Part shown: piece by piece, positions 1-62,239 of the stretch | Layout: each line of letters begins with the position of its first letter | Numbering within the stretch: position 1 is the stretch's first letter | Source of the DNA: an uncultured Bacteroidota bacterium | GTDB lineage: Bacteria > Bacteroidota > Bacteroidia > AKYH767-A > JABDAW01 | Length of the DNA: 64,000 nt | NCBI GenBank assembly: GCA_903844645.1 | Contig: CAIMUP010000013.1 | Span: forward strand, 1,428 to 65,427 | Direction: 5' to 3' | Program-made: the position numbers and the translations under genes | The notes under the pieces: generated by a model | The model's input: only the letters and a program-made list of their open reading frames with translations | The model's database searches: none | What the model was told of the DNA's origin: nothing

Positions 1-1791
1 CACTTGTTCGGTTTCTTCTCGATATTTAATTCCGATGCTATCAATTCCGTGGAATTAATCAAAGGCGGAATGCCTGCACAATATGGTGGTCGGCTTGCCT
101 CGGTCTTGGATATTTCGATGAAGGAAGGCAACAATCAATCCTTCCATGTGGATGGAGGCATCGGGGTGATTGCATCGCGCCTCACCATCCAGGGACCTAT
201 CGAAAAGAACAAATGTTCGTTCATTATTTCTGCAAGACGGACTTATATTGATGTGCTTGCCGCACCGTTCATCAGCAATTCCTCGCCGTTCAAGGGGAGC
301 GGGTATTTCTTCTATGATTTGAATGCCAAACTGAATTATCAATTCTCGGATAAGGATAAACTTTTCGTCAGTGGGTACTTTGGTCGCGATGTATTTTCTT
401 ATAAGAATTCCGACAATGGTTTCTCTGTAGATATTCCATGGGGCAACACCACCGTTTCGGCTCGTTGGAATCATTTATTCAGCAATAAAGTCTTTATGAA
501 TACCTCGCTGATCTATACCGATTATCAATTCCAATCCAGCTTTACGGAGAGCCAGTTCCAGTTCAGTTTATCTTCCGGCATCCGCGACTTTAATGCCAAG
601 TGGGACTTGAATTATTACCCTAACCTTCGTCATAATATTAAATTCGGAGCGATTTATACCTTCCATATCTTCACCCCGAGTACCATCTCTGGGCAGTCGG
701 GTTCGGTGGTGTTTAATCCTGGCAAACTGCACCTGTATGCCCAAGAGCCTGCCCTGTATGTCAGCGATGATTACGACCTTACTGATAGGATTAAAATTCA
801 TGCAGGCTTGCGGTATTCCGCTTTCCAGCAGATAGGTCCTTATAATTTCTTCCTCCATGATAAAAACGGCTCCATCACGGATACGATTCACTATGCCGAC
901 ATGGCTAACGTAGCTTTTTATCAAGGGTTGGAGCCGCGCGTTTCCATCCGATATTCCATCAATAAAAAGTCATCCCTCAAAGCGGGATATACGATTAACG
1001 ACCAGTACATGCACCTCGTGTCGCTGTCCACGGTTACGCTGCCCACCGATGTTTGGATGCCTACTTCGCAGAAAGTGAAGCCCGAAATCGGTACGCAATA
1101 TTCGATGGGTTACTTCCGAAATTTCAAAAAGGAAACGTACGAAACATCGGTCGAGGTGTATTACAAGGAGATGAAGCACATGATTGATTATGCCGATGGC
1201 TCGACCTACGGCGATAGCTATCAGGACAACTTCGACAAGTCGTTCGTATTTGGCAAAGGATGGTCGTATGGCGTGGAATTATTCATCAAGAAAGACCTCG
1301 GCAAACTGACGGGCTGGATCGGATATACCCTCTCCTATACCAACCGCAACTTCCCTGATAACAACGATTCGATGACCTTCCCCGCGAAGTACGATCGCCG
1401 CCACGATTTATCAGTCGTCGCGAACTATGTTTTCAATGATCATTGGACGTTCTCCAGCCAATTTGTATATGCTACTGGCGATGCGCTGACGGTCGAAACG
1501 GGGCGGTATTTCATCGAAAACCGGATCATGCCGGAATACGGCGCGAGGAATAATTACCGCCTCGACCCATACCATCGCGCCGATGTTTCGGCGACTTATA
1601 TCCGCAAAAAGCATGAGAAATACCAATCGTCCTGGACGTTCTCGATCTACAATGTGTACAACCGCCACAATCCGTATTTCATCTACCCCTCTACGTATGG
1701 CAGCACGGTGTTGAATAACCTGAAATTAACCGAAAAGGAGGTTTCCTTATTCCCGATTCTGCCTTCCGTCACCTGGAATTTTAAGTTTTAA
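1..1791 (+). CDS. TonB-dependent outer-membrane receptor, C-terminal part (5' end lies outside the window)
   Basis: Plug-domain motif 'ELIKGGMPAQYGGRLASVLDI' near the start of the translated frame; long beta-strand-rich barrel region; C-terminus ends '...TWNFKF' with a terminal Phe, as in OM barrels. The frame is open to the window edge. Confidence 0.85.
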   Translation, partial: HLFGFFSIFNSDAINSVELIKGGMPAQYGGRLASVLDISMKEGNNQSFHVDGGIGVIASRLTIQGPIEKNKCSFIISARRTYIDVLAAPFISNSSPFKGSGYFFYDLNAKLNYQFSDKDKLFVSGYFGRDVFSYKNSDNGFSVDIPWGNTTVSARWNHLFSNKVFMNTSLIYTDYQFQSSFTESQFQFSLSSGIRDFNAKWDLNYYPNLRHNIKFGAIYTFHIFTPSTISGQSGSVVFNPGKLHLYAQEPALYVSDDYDLTDRIKIHAGLRYSAFQQIGPYNFFLHDKNGSITDTIHYADMANVAFYQGLEPRVSIRYSINKKSSLKAGYTINDQYMHLVSLSTVTLPTDVWMPTSQKVKPEIGTQYSMGYFRNFKKETYETSVEVYYKEMKHMIDYADGSTYGDSYQDNFDKSFVFGKGWSYGVELFIKKDLGKLTGWIGYTLSYTNRNFPDNNDSMTFPAKYDRRHDLSVVANYVFNDHWTFSSQFVYATGDALTVETGRYFIENRIMPEYGARNNYRLDPYHRADVSATYIRKKHEKYQSSWTFSIYNVYNRHNPYFIYPSTYGSTVLNNLKLTEKEVSLFPILPSVTWNFKF

Positions 1792-1855
1792 TGATGGAAA
1801 GGGAGATTTTGAATCATAAAATGGAGTTCAATAAGGGAATTAGTGCCGCGCAAAT

Positions 1856-2047
1856 GATTATTAGCGGAGCTCGAATAGGTATTAGAGGAGCTCAAATGGT
1901 TATTAGAGGAGCTCGAATAGGTATTAGAGGAGTTCGAATAGGTATTAGAGGAGTTCGAATAGGTATTAGAGGAGCTCTAATAGGTATTAGAGGAGCTCAA
2001 ATAGGTATTGGAAGAGCTCAAATAGGTATTAGAGGAGCTCAAATTCC
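1856..2047. repeat. 21-bp tandem repeat, about 9 copies (unit AGGTATTAGAGGAGCTCGAAT)
   Basis: Direct reading gives units at 1877+21k with single-base variants (ctcAaat, gTtcgaat, ctcTaat, ttgGaaG). The array fills the gap between the TonB receptor stop (TAA 1789-1791) and the next gene start (ATG 2078). Confidence 0.92.
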
Positions 2048-2077
2048 ATCAATTTGTATTAATAAATTAGCTGTATC

Positions 2078-2974
2078 ATGAAAAAACTACTCTTTCTCCT
2101 TGCCCTGATTCCATTCATCTTTATCGGTTGCGAGAAAGATATTGCCGTGAATTTCCCGCCGCCACCCGATTTATTGGTCATCGAAGGGCACATCGAGCCG
2201 GGCGGATTTGCCTACGTTCACGTTACGCGGAATGCCAATTATTTCGCCTCCACGAATACCGATTCGCTGTTGCAATACCTCGTTACGGATGCCATCGTGG
2301 TAGTTTCTGATGGGATATTAATGGATACTTTGAAACAGACATTCGCCCCGTATTTGGACCCTTATTTCCCTGCTCCGGTGATTTATCTGGGGCAATTAAT
2401 CATCGGGCAACCGAACCATACCTACACACTGAAAGTCATTGCCAACGGGCAAACAGTTACCGCCACGACCTCCATCCCCGGGCTTGTACCGCTCGATAGT
2501 ACCTGGTTTAAGGTGGAGAATAACCTCGACAGTTTGGGATATGTTTACGGACACATGCACGACCCCGATTCCTTGGGCAATGCCTACCGGTTTATGATCA
2601 AACGGATTGGGCATTTCTCCGATGGCAAGCAGAAGGATTTGGGATTTATTGCCGATGTGAATTCGGTATTTGATGATAAAGTAATTAATGGGCAGAGCTT
2701 TGATGGCGACTTCAACCGTCCACATCTGCCGCATGATACCTCGGTCGAGAATCACAATATCGAGAATGGATATTTCAAGAAAGGCGATACCATCGTCCTG
2801 AAATGGATGACCCTCGACCACGATCATTACAAGTTCTGGCAAACCGAAGGTATCGCCGCCAATGGCGCGGATAATCCCTTCGCCTCCCCGACCATTATCA
2901 AGAGTAATATCAAAGGCGGCTTAGGTATTTGGGGAGGCTATGGCACGACCTATGACACGATTATTGCGAAATAA
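2078..2974 (+). CDS. lipoprotein, DUF4249-like (TonB-receptor-associated)
   Basis: Signal peptide with lipobox 'IFIGC'; about 300 aa; lies immediately downstream of a TonB-dependent receptor, the usual DUF4249 context in Bacteroidota. The family assignment is from memory only. Confidence 0.45.
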   Translation: MKKLLFLLALIPFIFIGCEKDIAVNFPPPPDLLVIEGHIEPGGFAYVHVTRNANYFASTNTDSLLQYLVTDAIVVVSDGILMDTLKQTFAPYLDPYFPAPVIYLGQLIIGQPNHTYTLKVIANGQTVTATTSIPGLVPLDSTWFKVENNLDSLGYVYGHMHDPDSLGNAYRFMIKRIGHFSDGKQKDLGFIADVNSVFDDKVINGQSFDGDFNRPHLPHDTSVENHNIENGYFKKGDTIVLKWMTLDHDHYKFWQTEGIAANGADNPFASPTIIKSNIKGGLGIWGGYGTTYDTIIAK

Positions 2975-2983
2975 AAGATAACT

Positions 2984-3919
2984 ATGGAAGAAAAAGTAAA
3001 ATGTTTAATCATCGGCTCGGGTCCTGCGGGATATACAGCCGCTATTTATGCCGCCAGAGCCGATATGAAACCCGTGCTTTATCAGGGTTTGCAGCCTGGC
3101 GGTCAATTAACCATCACTACCGAAGTAGAGAACTATCCGGGCTACCCCAAGGGCACTATGGGTCCGGAGATGATGGAGGATTTCAAAGCCCAAGCCGAAC
3201 GATTCGGGACAGATATTCGATGGGGATATGCCACCTCGGTGGATTTCTCTGGTGCAGTTCATAAAGTTATTATTGATGAAACCACGACCATCTTCGCCGA
3301 TACGGTAATCATCGCAACCGGTGCTTCTGCCAAGTGGCTCGGATTGGAATCCGAACAACGACTGAATGGTTTCGGGGTATCGGCATGTGCCGTCTGCGAT
3401 GGTTTCTTTTTCAAGAAGCAAGATGTCGCCATCGTTGGTGCCGGAGATACCGCTGCCGAAGAAGCTACTTACCTCGCCAAGCTATGCAACAAGGTGTATA
3501 TGATTATTCGTCGTGATGAGATGCGAGCTTCCAAAGCCATGCAACATCGCGTGCAGAATACTGCCAACATCGAAATTATTTATAACTCCGAAACCAAAGA
3601 AATCCTTGGCGAGAAGACCGTAGAAGCCGTCTTGGTTTATGATATTAAGAACAAGGTAGAGCGGAAACTCGATGTTACTGGCTTCTTCGTCGCGATAGGT
3701 CATCAGCCCAACACCGATTTATTCAAAGGCATCCTCGACATGGATGAAAACGGCTATTTAATCACCATTCCCGGCACTACCAAAACCAATGTCGGAGGCA
3801 TTTTTGCTGCAGGCGATGTCGCTGACCATGTGTATCGCCAAGCCGTTACCGCAGCCGGAACCGGATGTATGGCAGCCATAGATGCCGAAAGATATTTAGC
3901 CGCCAAAGGCATCCATTAA
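2984..3919 (+). CDS. trxB: thioredoxin-disulfide reductase
   Basis: N-terminal FAD-binding 'IIGSGPAGYTAA', redox-active 'CAVCDG', a second dinucleotide site 'VAIVGAGDTAAEEA', and 311 aa, typical of low-Mr thioredoxin reductase. Confidence 0.9.
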   Translation: MEEKVKCLIIGSGPAGYTAAIYAARADMKPVLYQGLQPGGQLTITTEVENYPGYPKGTMGPEMMEDFKAQAERFGTDIRWGYATSVDFSGAVHKVIIDETTTIFADTVIIATGASAKWLGLESEQRLNGFGVSACAVCDGFFFKKQDVAIVGAGDTAAEEATYLAKLCNKVYMIIRRDEMRASKAMQHRVQNTANIEIIYNSETKEILGEKTVEAVLVYDIKNKVERKLDVTGFFVAIGHQPNTDLFKGILDMDENGYLITIPGTTKTNVGGIFAAGDVADHVYRQAVTAAGTGCMAAIDAERYLAAKGIH

Positions 3920-4043: not shown

Positions 4044-4357
4044 GGCATTAGGAAAAAAAGCAGGGCATCAAATTACCCAATTTCATACCTTAAGTTTTTG
4101 CTCAAGGCATCACATTACCCGATGTGTGGGGTTGAGCAAAAACTTAATGCTTCACATCATCCAATTTGGAGGTATGGGAAAAAAAGTAATGCCCCACATT
4201 ACCCGATTTTGGGGTATGGCAAAAAACCTAATGCCCCACATTACCCAATGTGATGGTATGGCAAAAAACCTAATGCCCCACCTTACCCAATGCGGGGGTA
4301 TGAGCAAAAAAGTAGTGCCTCACATTACCTAATGTGGGGGTGTGATTTTCAATACAT
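4044..4357. repeat. 42-bp (2x21) tandem repeat, about 7 copies, each unit carrying a short hairpin (CCCCACATT-ACCC-AATGTGGGG type)
   Basis: The homologous 5-mer 'GGCAT/TGCNT' recurs at 4064, 4106, 4148, 4190, 4232, 4274 and 4316, exactly 42 bp apart; the ~4044 copy is only 20 bp upstream, i.e. partial. Units are degenerate but clearly homologous. The array lies in the convergent gap between trxB (+) and the symporter (-). Confidence 0.88.
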
Positions 4358-4551: not shown

Positions 4552-6069
4552 TTATAAACTCACTTTGGGATGAATTTTGTATTTTGCGATTAATAACAAG
4601 CCGATAAAAGTCAGCAGTCCGTTAATCATCAGCATCTCGAATCCGAATTGATAGGAGGTGAATAATTCTTTTGAATAAGTGTTCAGAAGGTAGCAAATTG
4701 TGGGCGGAAAAAGGGCGATGACAGGCACCAATTTATCCCTTACTTGCAGCTTCGTAAAGAGTCCGAAAACAAACAACCCGAGCAAGGGTCCGTAGGTATA
4801 ATTGGCGATGGTGAAGAGGTTATTCAGCACCGATTCTTTGATGGAGGTCTTGAAATAAACGATGACCAACAGCAAAATTATAGCGAAGCACAAATGCACC
4901 ACGCGGCGTACTTGCACTTGCTTCTTCTCGGTCCAGTTTTTTTCTCTGATACCGATAAAATCTATGCAGAAAGAGGTCGTCAAAGCGGTCAAAGCACCGT
5001 CAGCACTCGGGAAGGCTGCAGATATTAATCCGATAATGAAAAAAATACCGGAAACAGGTCCGAGAAAATGCAAGGCAATGGTCGGGAACAGGTCGTCTGA
5101 ATGCACCGGTATCGCAATGTTTTTCGCAGCAGCGAACAGGTAAAGCAATGCCCCCAAACAAAGGAACATAATGTTCACAAAGAAGAGAATAATACTGAAG
5201 GTGAACATGTTTTTTTGGGATTCTTTGAGGGTCTTGCACGAGATATTCTTTTGCATCATCTCTTGGTCTAAGCCCGTCATAGCGATAGCGATAAAAGCAC
5301 CGCCAAAGAAGTGCTTCAAGAAGAATTTTTTGTCGTTAAAATCAGTAACGAAGATGGCGGAATGCGGACGGTTTTTGATATTTGAAATCATATCGGTAAT
5401 GGAGAAGTTCAGTTCTTTCCCGATAAGATAAATCGTGATTACCACGGCTAATAACATGAAGGTTGTTTGCAAGGTATCTGTCCAAACAATCGTCTTTACG
5501 CCGCCCTGAAAGGTATAAAGTAAAATCAATACGATGAATGCCGCAACCGTTACTGTGAAAGGGATTCCCCACTCATCGAAAACGAATATCTGTAACACAT
5601 TAACCACAATATAAAGCCTGAATGACGCACCAATTACTCGCGAAAGCAGGAAGAAAAAAGCACCTGTTTTGTAACTGTATGCCCCGAAGCGTTGCAGTAG
5701 ATAGGAATAGATGGAAGTGAGGTTTAATCTATAATAAAGTGGCAGTAAGATGGTGGCGATAACAGCATACCCGACCATGTATCCTAAGACCATCTGGAAG
5801 TAAGCGAAGTGTTGCGGACCCACCCCTCCGGGTACCGACATAAAGGTTACACCGGATAGCGAAGCACCGATCATTCCGTAGGCTACCAGATACCATTTCG
5901 AGGACCTGTTGCCGATGAAGTAGGTTTCATTCGTGGCGTTGCGGCTGGTAAGATATGTGATGAGGAAAAGCACCGCAGAATACACCACCACGCAGGTTAA
6001 AAGTAAAGAAGGAGTCATTGTTTTTTTATAAGATGAGCAAAGAAACATAAAAGTATGGTAATTTTGCAA
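4552..6069 (-). CDS. sodium:solute symporter family transporter
   Basis: 505 aa, about 13 predicted transmembrane segments, glycine-rich helices typical of the SSF family. Confidence 0.7.
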   Translation of the reverse strand: MQNYHTFMFLCSSYKKTMTPSLLLTCVVVYSAVLFLITYLTSRNATNETYFIGNRSSKWYLVAYGMIGASLSGVTFMSVPGGVGPQHFAYFQMVLGYMVGYAVIATILLPLYYRLNLTSIYSYLLQRFGAYSYKTGAFFFLLSRVIGASFRLYIVVNVLQIFVFDEWGIPFTVTVAAFIVLILLYTFQGGVKTIVWTDTLQTTFMLLAVVITIYLIGKELNFSITDMISNIKNRPHSAIFVTDFNDKKFFLKHFFGGAFIAIAMTGLDQEMMQKNISCKTLKESQKNMFTFSIILFFVNIMFLCLGALLYLFAAAKNIAIPVHSDDLFPTIALHFLGPVSGIFFIIGLISAAFPSADGALTALTTSFCIDFIGIREKNWTEKKQVQVRRVVHLCFAIILLLVIVYFKTSIKESVLNNLFTIANYTYGPLLGLFVFGLFTKLQVRDKLVPVIALFPPTICYLLNTYSKELFTSYQFGFEMLMINGLLTFIGLLLIAKYKIHPKVSL

Positions 6070-8652: not shown

Positions 8653-8721
8653 AAAAATAAAATGAAAAACTATTGCTTTCGGTTTAGGAAAAATGCAGGG
8701 CGGTTTAGCTTTTATATTGAC

Positions 8722-8931
8722 CTGTTTAAAGTTTATGTCGGTCTGTTTAAAGTTTGTATCGGTCTGTTTAAAGTTTAAACAGGTCTGTTTAAAGTTTGTA
8801 TCGGTCTGTTTAAAGTTTAAACAGGTCTGTTTAAAGTTTAAACAGGTCTGTTTAAAGTTTGTATCGGTCTGTTTAAAGTTTAAACAGACCTGTTTAAAAT
8901 TTGTACAGACCTGTTTAAAAACTATATTGAC
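8722..8931. repeat. 21-bp tandem repeat, 10 copies, with alternating units CTGTTTAAAGTTTGTATCGGT and CTGTTTAAAGTTTAAACAGGT
   Basis: 'CTGTTTAAA' begins at 8722, 8743, 8764, ..., 8911, exactly 21 bp apart. The second unit type contains the 19-bp palindrome CTGTTTAAAgTTTAAACAG (GTTTAAAC core). Confidence 0.92.
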
Positions 8932-28646: not shown

Positions 28647-28854
28647 TTCACCCTTTTGAGGGATTGTTTTAGGAACTAATACCTTGTAATTTTGCATCCT
28701 TAATTACAAACAATGGATCATTACAATCACATAGCGAATACAACGGATAGCAATCACGACAGAGGCAATGCTTCTGGAAGGTTTTTCAATGGTGGCGGTA
28801 GTGATATGGATACAAATTGTAGTTTAAACATATGCCAAAAAAACTCAAACATAT

Positions 28855-29094
28855 CTTTTAGTAACAATAAGATACCTTTTAGTAACAATAAGATACCTTT
28901 TAGTAACAATAAGATACCTTTTAGTAACAATAAGATACCTTTTAGTAACATAAAGATATGTTTTAGTAACAAAAAGATACCTTTTAGTAACAAAAAGATA
29001 CCTTTTAGTAACAAAAAGATACCTTTTAGTAACAAAAAGATATGTTTTAGTAACAAAAAGATACCTTTTAGTAACAATAAGATATGTTTTAGTT
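28855..29094. repeat. 21-bp tandem repeat, about 11.5 copies (unit CTTTTAGTAACAATAAGATAC, variants AAAAAGATAC / GATATGT)
   Basis: Units start at 28855+21k, checked at 28876; read directly. The array is stop-free in several frames, which produces spurious heptad ORFs on both strands. Confidence 0.92.
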
Positions 29095-34679: not shown

Positions 34680-34866
34680 AATGTACACGTGTACAATTCG
34701 TCCTGCAACTGTGTCGGAGGCAATGTTCGGTGTACTTTGCCCCAACACAGTTGTGTTTGCCAATTCTACATGTGTACTATTGGCAAACACAGTTACTTTT
34801 GCAGAAGTACACGTGTAGAATTGGCAAACACAACTGTGTTTGCCAAATGTACACGTGTACATTCAA
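34680..34866. promoter_or_regulatory. cluster of alternating perfect palindromes (TGTACACGTGTACA and TTGGCAAACACAACTGTGTTTGCCAA) in a divergent promoter region
   Basis: A 14-bp perfect palindrome at 34682-34695 and again at about 34849-34862 with degenerate copies between; a 26-bp perfect palindrome at 34821-34846 with half-copies at 34745-34764 and 34781-34795; GTGTAC cores about 41 bp apart. Confidence 0.6.
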
Positions 34867-37950: not shown

Positions 37951-38202
37951 ATGAATATCTTTTGCTTCGGGATGAATATCCTTTGCTTCGGGATGAATAT
38001 CCTTTGCTTCGGGATGAATATCCTTTGCTTCGGGGTGAATATCTTTTGCTTCGGGGTGAATATCTTTTGCTTCGGGATGAATATCCTTTGCTTCGGGATG
38101 AATATCCTTTGCTTCGGGATGAATATCTTTTGCTTCGGGATGAATATCTTTTGCATCGGGATGAATATCTTTTCATCCGGCTTCAATACATTTTCATCCC
38201 GG
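37951..38202. repeat. 21-bp tandem repeat, 12 copies (unit ATGAATATCCTTTGCTTCGGG, variant ATCTTTTGCTTCGGGGTGA)
   Basis: 'ATGAATATC' begins at 37951, 37972, ..., 38161, exactly 21 bp apart. Confidence 0.92.
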
Positions 38203-38398
38203 GTTAATGTCTTACATGAACTTTTCCCCGTTATAAAACCCGATTTGGAGGGGTAAAAAGGGAGGTTTTTGGAAATTCTCCACCCTCCATTTCCCACTTT
38301 TAAGTCTCCATTCCCCATTTTCCATTCCCCATTCTTTTTCCATTGTCAGGAAATTTTATAGTTTTGCCCGCCTAACACTAAAATTATATCATAAAATA

Positions 38399-40405: not shown

Positions 40406-41251
40406 TTGTTCAGAATCATTTTTTGCTGCTTAATCATTTCTCTGATGACCTCCTGTTCCTATTTCAAACATAACGACGGCAATGCCGCTGTGGCAAAGGC
40501 TTTCGATGCTACTTTGAATCGGGCTGATGTCGCGGGATTGGTGCCGAAGGGCAGCTCCAAACAGGATAGTGTGATGATAGTGAAGAGCTATATTGACTCT
40601 TGGATTCGGAAGGAATTGGTATTAAGAAAAGCCGAGAAAAACCTCTCCGATGAGGCGAAGGATGTAGAGAAACAATTGGCAGATTATAAGAATTCTTTGA
40701 TAATTTATGCTTATGAAAAGGAACTGGTTCGCCAGCAATTAGATACCACGGTGAAGGATGCGGAGATCGAAAAATATTACAACGAGCACCAGGGAAATTT
40801 TGAATTAAAGGATAATATTATCAAGGTTTTGTACCTTAAATTACCGAAGACTGCGCCGAGACTTTATACCGTGAGGCAATGGTATAAATCCTCCAAGGCG
40901 AATGACCGGAAGTCGCTTGAGGACTATGCGCATCAGTATGCCGTGAATTATTATTTCGATGATAATTCGTGGTTGCAATTCGATGATTTATTAAAAGAAA
41001 TTCCGATTAAAACCTACGATAAAGAGCAGTTCTTGAAGAACAACCGGTATGTCGAAATCGAGGATTCGATGAATCTGTATTTCGTCAATATCAACGGCTT
41101 CAAAACTAAGGAAAGTACCTCGCCGCTCTCGTTTGAAAAGGATAATATCAAGAGCATTATTATCAATAAAAGGAAGCTGAAATTGATTGAGGATATGGAG
41201 AAAAAGGTGTACGACGAGGCGGTGAAGGGCAGCGATTTCAAGATTTATTAA
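40406..41251 (+). CDS. lipoprotein, SurA N-terminal-domain-like (hypothetical)
   Basis: Lipobox 'LMTSCS'; 281 aa; located between two PPIase genes. Confidence 0.45.
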   Translation: MFRIIFCCLIISLMTSCSYFKHNDGNAAVAKAFDATLNRADVAGLVPKGSSKQDSVMIVKSYIDSWIRKELVLRKAEKNLSDEAKDVEKQLADYKNSLIIYAYEKELVRQQLDTTVKDAEIEKYYNEHQGNFELKDNIIKVLYLKLPKTAPRLYTVRQWYKSSKANDRKSLEDYAHQYAVNYYFDDNSWLQFDDLLKEIPIKTYDKEQFLKNNRYVEIEDSMNLYFVNINGFKTKESTSPLSFEKDNIKSIIINKRKLKLIEDMEKKVYDEAVKGSDFKIY

Positions 41252-41284: not shown

Positions 41285-41445
41285 TACGACTACAATGATG
41301 CCGTCATCTCCTACAATGATAGCGTCATCTACTACAATTATGCCGTCATCTACTACAATTATGCCGTCATCTACTACAATGATGGCGTCATCTACTACAA
41401 TTATGCCGTCATCTACTACAATGATGGCAACTTCGACTACACATT
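41285..41445. repeat. 21-bp tandem repeat, about 7.5 copies (unit GCCGTCATCTACTACAATTAT/GAT)
   Basis: 'CGTCATCT' occurs at 41302, 41323 and 41344+21k. The array fills the gap between the 40406 gene (stop 41251) and the 41460 gene. Confidence 0.92.
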
Positions 41446-41459
41446 TATTACATTAATTC

Positions 41460-42830
41460 ATGAAAATAATCAAAAATATAACGGGAATTTTTTTCTGCAT
41501 CGCGCTGCTGAATTCCATTGATACCGTGGCGCAGGTGAAAATTCTGGATCAAGTAGCAGGGGTGGTCGGGGATAAGGTGATTCTGCAATCCGACATCGAA
41601 TCGCAATATCAGCAATATATGCTCCAAGGCGGGGTGGATAATCCAGCCATTCGCTGCGAAATTATGTATCAGATGTTGATTAATAAACTGCTCCTGAATC
41701 AAGCAATATTAGATAGCGTAGAAGTTTCGGGCACGGCTGTAGAGGAGGAATTGGATAAACGGATGCGGTATTATATCTCCCAAATCGGCTCGCAAAAGTT
41801 GCTGGAGGAACGTATGGGAAAATCGGTATTGGAGCTGAAAGCCGACTTCAGAACGCTGATTAAAGACCAGATGCTGACGCAACAAATGCAACAAAAAATT
41901 ACGAAAGATGTGAATGCCTCGCCATCGGATGTGAAAAGTTATTACGAACACATCCCGAAGGATAGTTTGCCGAGGGTAGAATCGGAATTTGAGATACAAC
42001 AAATCGTTCGGCATATAGAAGTTACCGATGAGCAAAAAAAGGAAGTGAAGGATAAATTGGAAGGTTATAAACAAGAGATTTTGAAGGGTACTCGGGACTT
42101 TGTCGCCACTGCCGTTTTATACTCTCAAGACCCCGGTACTACTAAAAAAGGCGGTGAATTAGGCTTCTTCGGGAGGGGCGATATGCAACCTGCTTTTGAG
42201 GCTGCCGCATTCCGCCTTCGTCCGGGTGAAATATCGGATATTATTGAAACGCCGTTCGGGTATCACATCCTGCAATTGATTGAAAGAAGGGGCGAACAGA
42301 TTAATGTCAGGCATATCTTATTACATCCAAAAGTAAGCGATGATAATATTGACAAAGCGAGTAAATTTTTGGATAGTTTGAAGACGGAAATTAATAATAA
42401 AACCATCACCTTTGCCGATGCGGCGATGAAATTCTCTGATGATGCAGATACCAAGAACAATGCCGGACTGATGCAAAATGTGCAGGATGGAACAACCAAA
42501 TTTGAGGCTACCACGATGGATAAAACCCTGTTCTTCCAGATAGATAAATTGAGCATCGGGGAGCTATCGAAGCCTGTATCTTATTCTGACAGAGAGGGCA
42601 AGGCTTCGTTGCGGGTATTGATGGTGAAATCGAAAACAGCTCCGCATACCGCGAACTTGAAAGACGATTATCAGAAGATTCGCGGGGCGGCTTTGCAGGA
42701 GAAACAGAACCTCGCCTTGCTGGATTGGGTGAAGAAGAAGCGTGCTAATACGTTTGTGAATATCACGAAAGATTATCGCAAGTGCGATGCCATAAAGGAC
42801 TGGTTGAAGAATACCGCAACAACGAATTAA
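41460..42830 (+). CDS. peptidyl-prolyl cis-trans isomerase SurA-like
   Basis: Signal peptide; SurA N-domain then parvulin domain 'GGELGFFGRGDMQPAFEAAAFRL...GYHILQLIE'. Confidence 0.8.
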   Translation: MKIIKNITGIFFCIALLNSIDTVAQVKILDQVAGVVGDKVILQSDIESQYQQYMLQGGVDNPAIRCEIMYQMLINKLLLNQAILDSVEVSGTAVEEELDKRMRYYISQIGSQKLLEERMGKSVLELKADFRTLIKDQMLTQQMQQKITKDVNASPSDVKSYYEHIPKDSLPRVESEFEIQQIVRHIEVTDEQKKEVKDKLEGYKQEILKGTRDFVATAVLYSQDPGTTKKGGELGFFGRGDMQPAFEAAAFRLRPGEISDIIETPFGYHILQLIERRGEQINVRHILLHPKVSDDNIDKASKFLDSLKTEINNKTITFADAAMKFSDDADTKNNAGLMQNVQDGTTKFEATTMDKTLFFQIDKLSIGELSKPVSYSDREGKASLRVLMVKSKTAPHTANLKDDYQKIRGAALQEKQNLALLDWVKKKRANTFVNITKDYRKCDAIKDWLKNTATTN

Positions 42831-43867: not shown

Positions 43868-44153
43868 ACGGCTGTTGATTGGAGAAAGTCGGCTGTTGAT
43901 TGGGGAAAGTTGACTGTTGATTGGGGAAAGTCGGCTGTTGATTGGGGAAAGTCGGCTGTTGATTGGGGAAAGTTGACTGTTGATTGGGGAAAGTCGGCTG
44001 TTGATTGGGGAAAGTCGGCTGTTGATTGGGGAAACATGGACGTAGATTGGGGAAACATGGACGTAGATTGCGGAAACATGGACGTAGATTGGGGAAACAT
44101 GGAGGTAGATTGTAGAAACATGGAGGTAGATTGCAGAAACATGGAGGTAGATG
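43868..44153. repeat. 21-bp tandem repeat, about 13.5 copies (units GTCGGCTGTTGATTGGGGAAA / GTTGACTGTTGATTGGGGAAA, decaying into CATGGACGTAGATTGGGGAAA and CATGGAGGTAGATTGCAGAAA)
   Basis: Unit starts at 43888 and 43909+21k; two clear sub-families within one array. Confidence 0.92.
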
Positions 44154-49925: not shown

Positions 49926-50165
49926 GCCGACCGGATTTGGGAAAGATGCGGTCGGATATTTCCTTTCTCCGGTCGGATATTTCTTTTTTCCGGTCGGATA
50001 TTTCTTTTTTCCGGTCGGATATTTCTTTTTTCCGGTCGGATATTTCTTTTTTCCGGTCGGATATTTCCTTTTTCCGGTCGGAGATTTCTTTTTTCCGGTC
50101 GGAGATTTCCTGTTTCCGGTCGGAGATTTCCTTTTTCCGGTCGGATATTTCCCGTTACCGACCAT
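49926..50165. repeat. 21-bp tandem repeat, about 11 copies (unit CCGGTCGGATATTTCTTTTTT, with GAGATTTC variants)
   Basis: 'CGGTCGG' occurs at 49948, 49969+21k; it begins immediately after the dgkA stop. Confidence 0.92.
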
Positions 50166-50299: not shown

Positions 50300-51691
<1,392 letters not shown>

Positions 51692-51721
51692 ATCCCAAAT
51701 AACCTTAATAATGATATAATT

Positions 51722-52849
51722 ATGGAAATAACAATCAAAAAAGTCGAAAACGGAGCCGATAAGAAGAAGTTTATTGACTTCGTTCATGATTTATATGCCG
51801 ATGATCCGAACTATGTGCCTGAACTTTACATGGCGCAAAGCGATTTGATGAATCCTAAGAAGAATCCTTTCTTTTGGCATTCCAAGGCGGATCTTTTTCT
51901 TGCTGAACGCGATGGAAAAGTGGTAGGAAGAATCGCCGCCATAAGGAATAATAATTATAATGAATACGCGAAAACCAAAGTCGGCTTCTTCGGGTTCTTC
52001 GATGTTATAAATGATTATGAAGTGGCTAAGAAATTACTCGATACCGCTAACGATTGGATTAAAAAGGAAGGCTTGACGGACATTATAGGACCTACAAATT
52101 TCTCTACCAATGAAACTTGCGGCTTATTAGTAGAAGGTTTGGATTCTGCGCCTGTAATTATGATGACTTATAACAAGGCTTATTACAAAACCTTCTTAGA
52201 TAAATATGGTTTTACTAAGCAAATGGACCTGATTGCATACGTCCTGGACCCGATGGATATGCCGGAAAAGCTATTGCGATTAGCAAAAGGGATTGAGGAG
52301 CGTTTGAAGAGAAGAAACATTACCGTCCGCAAGATAAATATGAAGGATTTTAACAACGAAGTAGCCAAAGTAAAGGAAATTTATAATGCTGCCTGGGATA
52401 AAAATTGGGGTTTTGTGCCGATGACGGATGACGAATTCAAATTCCAGGCTAAGGATATGAAAATGATATTAGATAAAGACTTCGCGTATGTAGCCGAAGA
52501 CAACGGAAAGGTCATCGCGTTCTCATTAACTATTCCGAATGTGAACGAGGTGTTCAAAACCATCAAGCGGGGCAGGTTATTCCCGACGGGGCTGTTAAAA
52601 TTAGTATTAAATAAGAGCAAAATATCCAGCGTACGTGTGATTACATTGGGGGTGTTGGAGGAATATCGGAAGCTGGGTATAGACGTCGTGTTTTATGCTA
52701 AGAACATGGAAACCGCCCAACAGAAAAAACTTAAATATGCAGAGGCTTCCTGGATTTTAGAGAACAATAAGGAGATGAATTCTCCCTTAATTTCCATCAA
52801 TGCGAAGCCTTATAAAACATATCGTATCTTTGAGAAGAAGATAGTATGA
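51722..52849 (+). CDS. hypothetical protein, possibly a GNAT-fold N-acyltransferase
   Basis: 375 aa; 'VGRIAAIRNN...VGFFGFFDV' resembles a GNAT beta4-alpha3 motif; weak. Confidence 0.45.
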   Translation: MEITIKKVENGADKKKFIDFVHDLYADDPNYVPELYMAQSDLMNPKKNPFFWHSKADLFLAERDGKVVGRIAAIRNNNYNEYAKTKVGFFGFFDVINDYEVAKKLLDTANDWIKKEGLTDIIGPTNFSTNETCGLLVEGLDSAPVIMMTYNKAYYKTFLDKYGFTKQMDLIAYVLDPMDMPEKLLRLAKGIEERLKRRNITVRKINMKDFNNEVAKVKEIYNAAWDKNWGFVPMTDDEFKFQAKDMKMILDKDFAYVAEDNGKVIAFSLTIPNVNEVFKTIKRGRLFPTGLLKLVLNKSKISSVRVITLGVLEEYRKLGIDVVFYAKNMETAQQKKLKYAEASWILENNKEMNSPLISINAKPYKTYRIFEKKIV

Positions 52850-54368: not shown

Positions 54369-54775
54369 CCGTCATCATATATGAAAACGGACAATCGTAA
54401 TAGTTATTATTGTATTAACTATTGTAATTATTGCTTTAGCAATAGTAAATATGACCATAACGATACCTTGGGCGATATTTTCTATCGTTACTGCAATAAT
54501 AACATATGTAAAAGGTATCCTTAGGATACCAATTATACGTTTTCATATATGATGACGGACGAAAAGGATAGTAAAAGCTGTTATCACGATAGTTATTGTT
54601 GTTATCACAATGGTAAAAGCGGTTATCACAATAGTTATTGCTGTTATCACAATAGTTATTGTAGTTATCACAATAGTTATTGCAGCTATTACAATTGTAA
54701 AAGCAGTTATTATAATAGCTATAACAGTATTCACGATAGCGATGACAAAAACTGTAAGTACATTCATTAGTAATA
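54369..54775. repeat. AT-rich degenerate 21-bp phased repeats (GTTATCACAATAGTTATTGCT-like) with a 21-bp inverted-repeat pair and a central 17-bp palindrome
   Basis: CCGTCATCATATATGAAAACG at 54369-54389 is the exact reverse complement of 54538-54558; palindrome GGTATCCTTAGGATACC at 54514-54530; 21-bp period clearest at 54579-54720. No convincing CDS lies between 53854 and 54978. Confidence 0.8.
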
Positions 54776-54978
54776 CCATATAAATAGCACAATAGATGAA
54801 GAAATTAAAGGTAAAACGGATGGTTTATATCAGGATTAATGATGTCCCTGACACCCGAATGGTGATTCTTTCCATGTTCCTGACAGGTTTTTTCACCTGA
54901 TAGGTTTTGAGAATTGGAATTCCTATCGTTTCATCAGGTTTTGGGATTACAATTTGGAGGGAAAGGCTTCCTTTTTTA

Positions 54979-57781: not shown

Positions 57782-58020
57782 ATAATTTGGGGCGAAATTA
57801 GTATAATTAAGGATAATAATATGATGAAGTATTTGATAAAAATAAGGATGACAAAAGGAATGCTACACGACAAATTATTTTTTCATAAACTTCAGATTCA
57901 TCTACTAAATGACTACAATTTTTATCTAATAATTTGGAGAATTAATGCCTGCAAAACGGAACAAATTAAGAGCATAAAAATGTGGCTTCTTTGGAATAAA
58001 ATTCTGAATAAGAGGGATTC

Positions 58021-58152
58021 CGACTCGGCTGCGAATGATTTCGTCGTGACTGCGACTATTTTCATCATGACTGCGACCATTTCCGACTAGATTGCGACTA
58101 TTTTCATCGTGACTGCGACCATTTCCGACTAGATTGCGACCATTTTCATCGG
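58021..58152. repeat. 21-bp tandem repeat, 6 copies (alternating TGACTGCGACCATTTCCGACT / AGATTGCGACTATTTTCATCG)
   Basis: 'TGCG' at 58030, 58051, 58072, 58093, 58114 and 58135. The array lies between the co-directional DPP-IV and TPR-membrane genes. Confidence 0.9.
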
Positions 58153-61932: not shown

Positions 61933-62239
61933 AAAGTCGAGATATTGAAACAATGAATCGTACCCATTAACCACTTAATTGAAGTGAAAGACTATTTTAG
62001 TATAATGAATGACTCATTAAGTATAATGAAAGACTATTTTAGTATAATGAATGACTAAAACACTAATATGAAAGACTAATTACCAGACATGAAAGACCAC
62101 TTCATGTCTGGCAATTAGTCTTTCATATTAGTGAATTAGTCTTTTACCTTAATAAAGTAGTTAATCATTATACTAAAATAGTCTTTCACTTCAATTAAGT
62201 GGTTAATGGGTACGATTCATTGTTTCAAGGTCTCGACTT
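61933..62239. repeat. about 307-bp palindromic element: 73-bp terminal inverted repeats (2 mismatches), internal 21-bp phased TGAA(A/T)GAC repeats, and a central 73-bp palindrome with a CCAGACATG...CATGTCTGG hairpin
   Basis: Left arm 61933-62008 is the reverse complement of right arm 62165-62239. Inner inverted repeat CACTAATATGAAAGACTAATT (62061-62081) pairs with AATTAGTCTTTCATATTAGTG (62113-62133). TGAA(A/T)GAC recurs every 21-22 bp, spacings read 22/21/21/21/21. Confidence 0.9.

Follow-up and report, generated by a model that had tools for sequence, protein, structure and literature searches.

The locus studied here raises the question of why an open reading frame (ORF) of 96 codons, made largely of tandem repeats, stands exactly between two genes that in other genomes adjoin each other. 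It belongs to a stretch of 64,000 nucleotides (nt) of contig CAIMUP010000013.1 (hereafter, the window), which derives from a clade of uncultured freshwater Bacteroidota, and comprises the 3' portion of a gene for a TonB-dependent receptor, the small ORF, a DUF4249 lipoprotein gene and trxB, encoding a thioredoxin-disulfide reductase. Samples from stratified lakes, such as ERZ18667851 and ERZ1426621, contain the species. An initial annotation of the locus had placed the small ORF at 1791-2081, with IRGARIG repeats, a start codon overlapping the receptor stop (TAATG) and a stop codon overlapping the DUF4249 start (ATGA), all of which agree with the sequence, the ORF list and the output of Tandem Repeats Finder (TRF); it had further suggested either a real heptad-repeat micro-protein, or coupling junctions that were preserved as a repeat expanded in the gap. 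According to our comparison with related genomes, the insert ORF is best explained as a pass-through ORF, which would preserve termination-reinitiation coupling and/or block Rho polarity, instead of encoding a functional heptad protein; we assign this reading a probability of about 0.5.

The receptor/DUF4249 junction was surveyed in the contigs of DUF4249 homologues (597 found) and in 80 GTDB loci, the relatives being cited here by locus number (e.g., L005). In most of about 70 relatives, the gap between the receptor stop and the DUF4249 start measured -1 to +6 nt (TGATG, TAAnnATG), as compared with 286 nt in the window, which answers in the affirmative the question, raised initially, whether this gap is normally about 0 bp. 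Since the tight gap is found in most relatives, the ancestral state of the junction is, judging by this survey, a classic coupled one. Array inserts (180-310 nt) were confined to a clade whose DUF4249 identity is 59% or more, where seven lineages carry arrays of 21- or 42-bp period at this junction (Table 1); these amount to five distinct unit families, L008 and L100 having one family in common, and L093 and L096 the AAGTCATGACTG core. Homology between the L008 and L093 units was also considered, and the best match (10/19 positions after a 1-nt shift) was not distinguishable from chance. In a neighbor-joining tree, inserts were located in both subclades, and the sequence comparison as a whole indicates that the arrays arose independently on the ancestral tight junction.

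Copy number varies even within species, with L005 and L006 differing by 2 units, and L090 and L091 by 1 unit; all within-species length variants retain the ORF (96 vs 124 aa, 102 vs 88 aa, and 58 vs 51 aa). The window array itself differs among samples, as revealed by the 124-aa variant, by an N gap and by contigs that break off within the array, and the order of its units is different in L002. Thus, the locus displays the head-to-tail copies and the copy-number polymorphism between strains that define a variable number tandem repeat (VNTR) or minisatellite. It does not behave as a phase-variable contingency locus, all observed copy-number variants being in frame, because a unit of 21 nt corresponds to 7 codons. 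Other length variation near the junction proved to be of a different nature. The 545-nt gap of L011, a relative with 45% identity, is located at the same junction and was rejected as an array; it contains an inserted small gene (L011 946-1496) encoding a protein of ~125 aa, presumably GxxExxY/PD-(D/E)XK-like, and flanked by CGCGGAG / CTCTGCG short repeats, which constitutes a different insertion kind at the same site. Likewise, the 760-nt insert between DUF4249 and trxB in L005 and L007 consists of two ordinary small genes, and an array 3' of DUF4249 in L010 was discarded as non-syntenic, in a gap that is not tight and has no gap-filling ORF.

With regard to the window, the array is far beyond chance, and degenerate or decayed units extend it 5' to about 1817, as determined by inspection of the unit register. 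One of the six frames is open across the array, and when the array was kept and the flanks were shuffled, the whole gap was open in 5% of trials; therefore, the open frame is not beyond chance by itself, and its significance rests on the comparison with relatives. In this comparison, the first ATG after the receptor stop opened a frame running uninterrupted through the insert in all six complete inserts, so that neither the in-frame stops nor the change of frame that would have spoken against a maintained ORF were encountered. In the window, this ATG overlaps the receptor stop; in five other lineages, it follows the stop by 3-4 nt, and the 5' end of the small ORF contains a homologous stretch, ATGRAAAnGRnGATTT. 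At the other end, the stop codon overlaps the DUF4249 start as ATGA (window, L005 and the partial L096), directly precedes it (L090), or is located 4-7 nt before it (L093, L008 and L100). Consequently, co-oriented ORFs overlap or are separated by no more than 7 nt at both ends, which is the stop/start proximity expected of translational coupling. Among the remaining frames of the six complete inserts, 1/30 was fully open. Shuffling of the flanks around unaltered arrays left the designated frame open in 2-8.5% of trials per lineage, and in simulations of neutral mutation of L008 up to the L008-L100 divergence, it was open in 2-5%; the joint chance is about 1e-4 even if just three lineages are counted as independent. 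These results suggest that the frame has been kept open by selection. They also accord with the second proposal of the initial annotation, as every insert lineage keeps a same-strand ORF filling a gap that is normally about 0 nt.

A second junction of the window displays, on sequence grounds, the same pattern independently. Here, a parallel array ORF (Table 1) begins 4 nt past the stop of a hypothetical gene (ending at 41251) and ends 3 nt short of the ATG of a SurA-like peptidyl-prolyl isomerase (PPIase) gene starting at 41460, and the corresponding gap measures 12 nt in L102 (82% identity) and 1 nt or less, or is replaced by an overlap, in the distant L104, L106 and L107.

These features may be explained as follows. 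A lineage-specific 21-bp minisatellite would have grown within the overlapping or adjacent stop/start junction of the receptor/DUF4249/trxB operon, and would be tolerated only as an uninterrupted same-strand ORF, so that stop-free, in-frame versions persist. The start of the ORF would be the first ATG that overlaps or closely follows the receptor stop, probably the ancestral position of the DUF4249 start. Indeed, the small-ORF ATG occupies the position of the DUF4249 ATG of outgroups (e.g., TAACAGGATGAAAAG in L051 vs TAACAGGATGAAAGA in L005), which suggests that the insert arose just inside the DUF4249 5' end or by duplication of the junction. Ribosomes ending the receptor gene would re-initiate on the small ORF, cross the array and terminate where re-initiation on DUF4249 is possible, and no particular sequence would be required of the peptide itself. 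Two possible reasons can be envisaged for this arrangement: a requirement of DUF4249 initiation for ribosomes that have come through the receptor gene, and the exposure of the operon, trxB included, to Rho-dependent polarity by 270-310 nt of untranslated RNA. Fewer than 20 nt of additional spacing are known to reduce coupling efficiency, and untranslated RNA is where Rho loads (reviewed in PMC12548453). Translation of the ORF, and selection for its coupling or anti-polarity effect, are our inferences.

The receptor segment 4-1788 matches OMP_b-brl_4 (Pfam), and the full-length orthologue in L001 has 788 aa with CarboxypepD_reg, Plug and barrel domains (Pfam). The position of trxB 3' of DUF4249 is syntenic in relatives, and trxB is likely part of one operon with the receptor and DUF4249 genes, and hence exposed to polarity. 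A sigma-70/terminator scan of 1500-3100 revealed no terminator-like site and a single weak promoter-like site, fewer than in shuffled sequences. No TAnnTTTG box of the Bacteroidetes type was found in the six inserts, where about one would be expected by chance, which makes this absence weak evidence, and an Rfam scan of the whole window identified no family.

Several points weigh against the pass-through reading. The insert is dispensable, as evidenced by the 1-nt gaps of two clade members, L010 and L108, and by the 66-nt gap of P0002, a 76% relative. The lineages are not fully independent (common 5' end; unit families common to L008/L100 and L093/L096), so that the combined P for frame retention is less stringent than multiplication of the per-lineage values would make it. 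Minus-strand frames are nearly open across the arrays of L005, L008 and L090, indicating that open frames over arrays are cheap, and a stop near the DUF4249 ATG is almost automatic for any frame open through the array, because the gene starts with ATG AAA, thereby generating ATGA, and its leader is rich in TAA and TAG. Furthermore, the DUF4249 ATG is preceded by AT-rich sequence, a feature also of Bacteroidetes genes that are initiated independently, and coupling might be unneeded. Finally, frame retention is the sole argument both for translation of the small ORF and for the presumed dependence of the downstream gene on upstream translation.

Retention of the frame in all inserts would also be expected of a real, fast-evolving small protein, in this case a basic Ile/Arg/Gly heptad-repeat helix acting with the receptor/DUF4249 pair, whose repeat would be free, or driven, to diversify. 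The product begins with MMEREILNHKMEFNKGISAAQMIISGARIGIRGAQMVIRGARIG and reads MMEREILNHKMEFNKGISAAQMI before the IRGARIG-type heptads; the first residues are conserved among lineages (M-E/K-x-E/M-I), there is weak similarity among the C-terminal tails (IPSICINKL, FPSKVHKYL, IPDLIKHDL), and AlphaFold, run on the single 96-aa sequence, predicted one long helix with a predicted local distance difference test (pLDDT) score of 87.6. In the IRGARIG heptad, Ile and Ala occupy the a and d positions, but two Gly and two Arg are present as well. However, conservation of the 5' end is at the nucleotide level, third positions included, and the helix, with a predicted template modeling (pTM) score of 0.45, was judged uninformative, as it is the default model for any periodic sequence. 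Between the ORFs of L008 and L100 (84 codons each), the sole alignable pair, 108/252 nt differ, distributed as 33/44/31 over the codon positions and hence with no third-position excess; the proportions of nonsynonymous (pN) and synonymous (pS) differences are 0.44 and 0.38, and the ratio of the corresponding rates (dN/dS) is about 1.25, as compared with 0.036 for the receptor and 0.32 for DUF4249 in the same genomes. The codon-level analysis of unit variants, proposed initially as a check, revealed no constraint on the peptide, since the 8 distinct variants of the window array were all nonsynonymous in the ORF frame and 0 were synonymous. Moreover, the heptads of the relatives are chemically unrelated (FPFMAPW, ECAIRPT, EVMTGTI, SCGCIAD) and include Pro in the units of L005 and L090, the ORF is absent from L010 and L108, and a search among 5.8 billion proteins retrieved one partial same-species match and no other homologue. 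As neither a signal peptide nor a Pfam match was found for the small ORF, nor homologues under purifying selection, it does not qualify as a conserved small-protein gene. At the level of these comparisons, the peptide has evolved neutrally, free of purifying selection, and we regard a functional small protein as decidedly improbable; what stands of the proposed micro-protein is a frame apparently held open by selection, whereas its peptide displays no conservation.

The opposite view, that the array is untranslated spacer DNA or RNA, would make the ORF a by-product of a stop-free 21-nt unit, with AT-rich boundaries supplying the ATG and the stop codons. Open frames over arrays are in fact common (29/72 frames fully open across the 12 window arrays), and therefore an ORF over one array is weak evidence alone; covering ORFs on the same strand (8/9) are not significantly more common than those on the opposite strand (5/9), and the ATGA intrinsic to the DUF4249 start and the nearly open minus-strand frames of three lineages also fit a spacer. 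Conversely, an incidental ORF accounts poorly for a frame that was designated in advance and found open in 6/6 complete inserts against 1/30 of the other frames (P of 0.02-0.085 per lineage by flank shuffling, and of 0.02-0.05 by neutral mutation in one pair), or for a second tight junction with the same pattern, and we consider an untranslated spacer unlikely. There is similarly little likelihood that the array acts mainly at the DNA or RNA level, as a copy-number rheostat or structural element tuning the DUF4249/trxB-to-receptor ratio by means of spacing, phased protein binding or hairpins, with the frame as a side constraint. The within-species copy-number polymorphism would suit such a role, as would the enrichment of internal palindromes described below and a 21-bp period, about two turns and thus one helix face, which is common to arrays whatever their sequence or position, convergent gaps included. 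Nevertheless, the dyad symmetry of the window unit is weak, the transcript is not unusually structured (fold of 1780-2100, z -1.7), units of different arrays and lineages have unrelated sequences, which leaves no single sequence-specific binder that would fit, and frame retention is not explained by this role alone.

The proposed pass-through ORF may be compared with known systems. Termination-reinitiation coupling has been described at overlapping or adjacent stop/start codons such as ATGA and TAATG (PMC12548453; Huber et al. 2019, 2023, cited therein). The locus resembles these cases in its co-oriented genes, in the overlap or spacing of 7 nt or less at both ends of the small ORF and in its typical ancestral junction, and differs in that two putatively coupled junctions are chained through a hypervariable-minisatellite ORF with an unconserved product. 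In engineered bicistronic designs, reportedly those of Mutalik et al. in 2013, the stop of a short leader cistron overlaps the start of the gene of interest. They have in common with the present proposal a leader ORF whose product is irrelevant, overlapping stop/start codons and downstream initiation by arriving ribosomes; unlike them, the ORF studied here is natural, about 50-125 codons long, built from repeats, variable in length and itself putatively coupled to the upstream gene.

As for repeats, the arrays share with bacterial VNTRs or minisatellites (PMC6749651) the head-to-tail arrangement, the strain-polymorphic copy number, the 42/63-bp higher-order variants and the assembly breaks, and depart from them in their density of about 174 arrays/Mb, in a single period for unrelated units and in a mostly intergenic location without frameshift phase variation. 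Intergenic heptanucleotide direct repeats, such as the TAACTGA sets, have been reported in Beggiatoaceae, Cyanobacteria and five Bacteroidetes (PMC4679880). These likewise form many intergenic arrays per genome, often near start codons, with unit-step indels and a patchy distribution among lineages; however, a single 7-nt unit is used genome-wide in that system, whereas the 21-nt units described here are different at every locus. Repetitive extragenic palindromic (REP) sequences and bacterial interspersed mosaic elements (BIME) are intercistronic palindromes forming one dispersed family, mobilized by the REP-associated tyrosine transposase (RAYT). The arrays resemble them in their intercistronic location within operons and in the dyad symmetry of many units, and differ in having neither dispersed copies nor common flanks.

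The array at the receptor/DUF4249 junction is one of about 12 identified by TRF in the window, with periods of 21 (or 42/63/126) and unrelated units, which occupy most long intergenic gaps in any orientation of the flanking genes, convergent gaps included; no 7-nt sub-period was detected in the units, TRF giving a period of 21 only. Taking the window and three relatives together, 21/24 arrays have periods of 21 or its multiples, at 174/Mb, as compared with 2/12 arrays and 1.8/Mb in outgroups (1.13 Mb, 78 loci), which represents an excess of about 100-fold; most prokaryotes contain fewer than 4 satellites/Mb (Subirana & Messeguer 2019, PMC6749651). The units are locus-specific, as 9/11 have no copy with 4 or fewer mismatches outside their own array and the remaining 2/11 have a few 4-mismatch matches elsewhere, and comparison of the array flanks revealed no common motif beyond A-rich gene starts; on the strength of these two features, a mobile or dispersed repeat family such as REP/BIME or miniature inverted-repeat transposable elements (MITE) was rejected. 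In addition, units are enriched in internal palindromes, with a mean best arm of 4.35 vs 3.39 in shuffles (about 6 standard deviations), and arms of 5 or more in 42% of units vs 10% in shuffles. Nothing specific was retrieved from the literature on arrays of 21 bp in Bacteroidota or on coupling ORFs built from repeats.

This satellite phenomenon is more surprising than the question of the ORF itself. A multiple-of-3 constraint would allow periods of 15, 18 and 24 too, and arrays in convergent gaps need no frame; 21 is the smallest length that holds both whole codons and whole (two) helical turns of 10.5 bp, and one may speculate that the period is tied to this length. Equally speculatively, an array might be born from symmetric binding or cutting, as the dyad symmetry of many units would suggest; the 42/63/126 higher-order patterns fit ordinary slippage or unequal exchange afterwards. 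In its broadest form, which we put forward tentatively and with considerable doubt, the clade would have a dedicated process making exact 21-bp tandem duplications at arbitrary, often dyad-symmetric sites, seeding a new kind of satellite (~170 arrays/Mb), and the arrays within operons would be domesticated as translated, "sequence-free" relay ORFs, selected only for openness and acting as a source of de novo repeat peptides.

Individual arrays displayed further traits. The array at 51563-51690 (AGKDDNY units; region 51459-51722) shares its frame with the aminotransferase gene on one side (end at 51544) and with the GNAT-domain gene on the other (start at 51722). A single TAA parts it from the aminotransferase, whose last residues, AGDDDNL, form a repeat unit themselves, and the array seems to have originated in, or expanded into, the 3' end of that gene. 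The minus-strand array ORF at 54543-54779, with the very hydrophobic repeat VITAITI, is the sole one in which synonymous unit variants predominate over nonsynonymous ones in an open frame (8 vs 4; 7 vs 5 on the plus strand), and may be a genuinely coding small membrane peptide. At 61934-62239, a 21-bp array occurs as two copies in opposite orientation (TGAAAGACTA... / TAGTCTTTCA...), which form together with their flanks a large inverted repeat, with arms of 125 nt, 86% complementary and 56 nt apart, across which no frame is open. The array at 43869-44152 is a composite of two unit subfamilies, CGGCTGTTGATTGGGGAAAGT followed by TGGACGTAGATTGGGGAAACA, with a 63-bp higher-order structure and in-place unit turnover. 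Arrays located 5' of an orthologous PpiC-type gene in L102 (24-152) and in the window (37951-38213) have a GCTTCGG(G/A) core in common and differ in the rest, suggesting drift of the units within orthologous arrays that are themselves retained; in L102, the unit forms a palindrome with 7-bp arms (CCGAAGC A GCTTCGG). Clade arrays with a period that is not a multiple of 21 are few, and include the array at 34744-34861 of the window (period 41) and an opposed pair in L005 (2708-2812 and 2837-2952), the latter consisting of 7/8/15-bp arrays of GGTATAAGGGTATAG and its reverse complement that form a long hairpin-capable palindrome 3' of a HupE/UreJ_2 gene. Finally, short-read contigs of many independent samples stop within arrays or contain N gaps there (L002-L004, L007, L092, L096-L099 and L101; L001 at 5757-5856), and the arrays are a systematic cause of assembly breaks, at intergenic sites, in the metagenome-assembled genomes of this clade.

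Table 1. Features of the window, with their positions, and array inserts at the receptor/DUF4249 junction of its relatives.
Feature	Position	Strand	Basis and remarks
TonB-dependent receptor gene, 3' part (595 codons)	4-1791	+	ORF list; CarboxypepD_reg-Plug-beta-barrel type; stop TAA 1789-1791
TAATG, receptor stop TAA (1789-1791) sharing a base with small-ORF ATG (1791-1793)	1789-1793	+	Sequence
Gap-filling ORF, 96 codons, proposed pass-through (relay) ORF	1791-2081	+	ORF list
21-bp tandem array, unit TATTAGAGGAGCTCAAATAGG	1859-2044		TRF: 8.9 copies, 90% matches, no indels, score 288
ATGA, small-ORF stop TGA (2079-2081) within DUF4249 start ATG (2078-2080)	2078-2081	+	Sequence
DUF4249 lipoprotein gene	2078-2974	+	PF14054, E 3e-26 (2078-2971); signal peptide, lipobox ...FIGC
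Thioredoxin-disulfide reductase gene (trxB)	2984-3919	+	Pfam Pyr_redox_2; 9 nt 3' of DUF4249
Parallel array ORF, 66 codons	41256-41456	+	Over array 41289-41426; fills gap between hypothetical gene and SurA-like PPIase gene
Further arrays of the window	4111-4341, 8711-8919, 28847-29093, 37951-38213, 41289-41426, 43869-44152		TRF
Further arrays of the window (continued)	49949-50152, 51563-51690, 54568-54722, 58018-58151, 61985-62200		TRF
Insert, window			286 nt; unit TATTAGAGGAGCTCAAATAGG; heptads IRGARIG
Insert, L005 / L006			309 / 267 nt; heptads FPFMAPW / RFWFMAPI
Insert, L090 / L091			180 / 159 nt; heptads ECAIRPT
Insert, L008			266 nt; heptads SCGCIAD / SLVALAG
Insert, L100			266 nt; unit family common to L008
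Insert, L093-95			302 nt; heptads EVMTGTI / KVRTLSE
Insert, L096-99			Every contig breaks inside array; heptads KVMTERL; AAGTCATGACTG core common to L093

If the pass-through reading is correct, the locus would represent a natural ORF maintained purely for the act of translation, as a coupling or anti-polarity bridge, and a relay ORF that has been rebuilt repeatedly from unrelated minisatellites and is recognizable by frame retention without peptide conservation. It would then bear on the tolerance of operons to insertions and on de novo gene birth, as well as on the handling of repeat ORFs by gene callers, given that Prodigal called these ORFs as hypothetical proteins of 51-124 aa. Beyond this junction, the clade-wide excess of arrays points to a length-measuring mutational process or constraint in bacteria.

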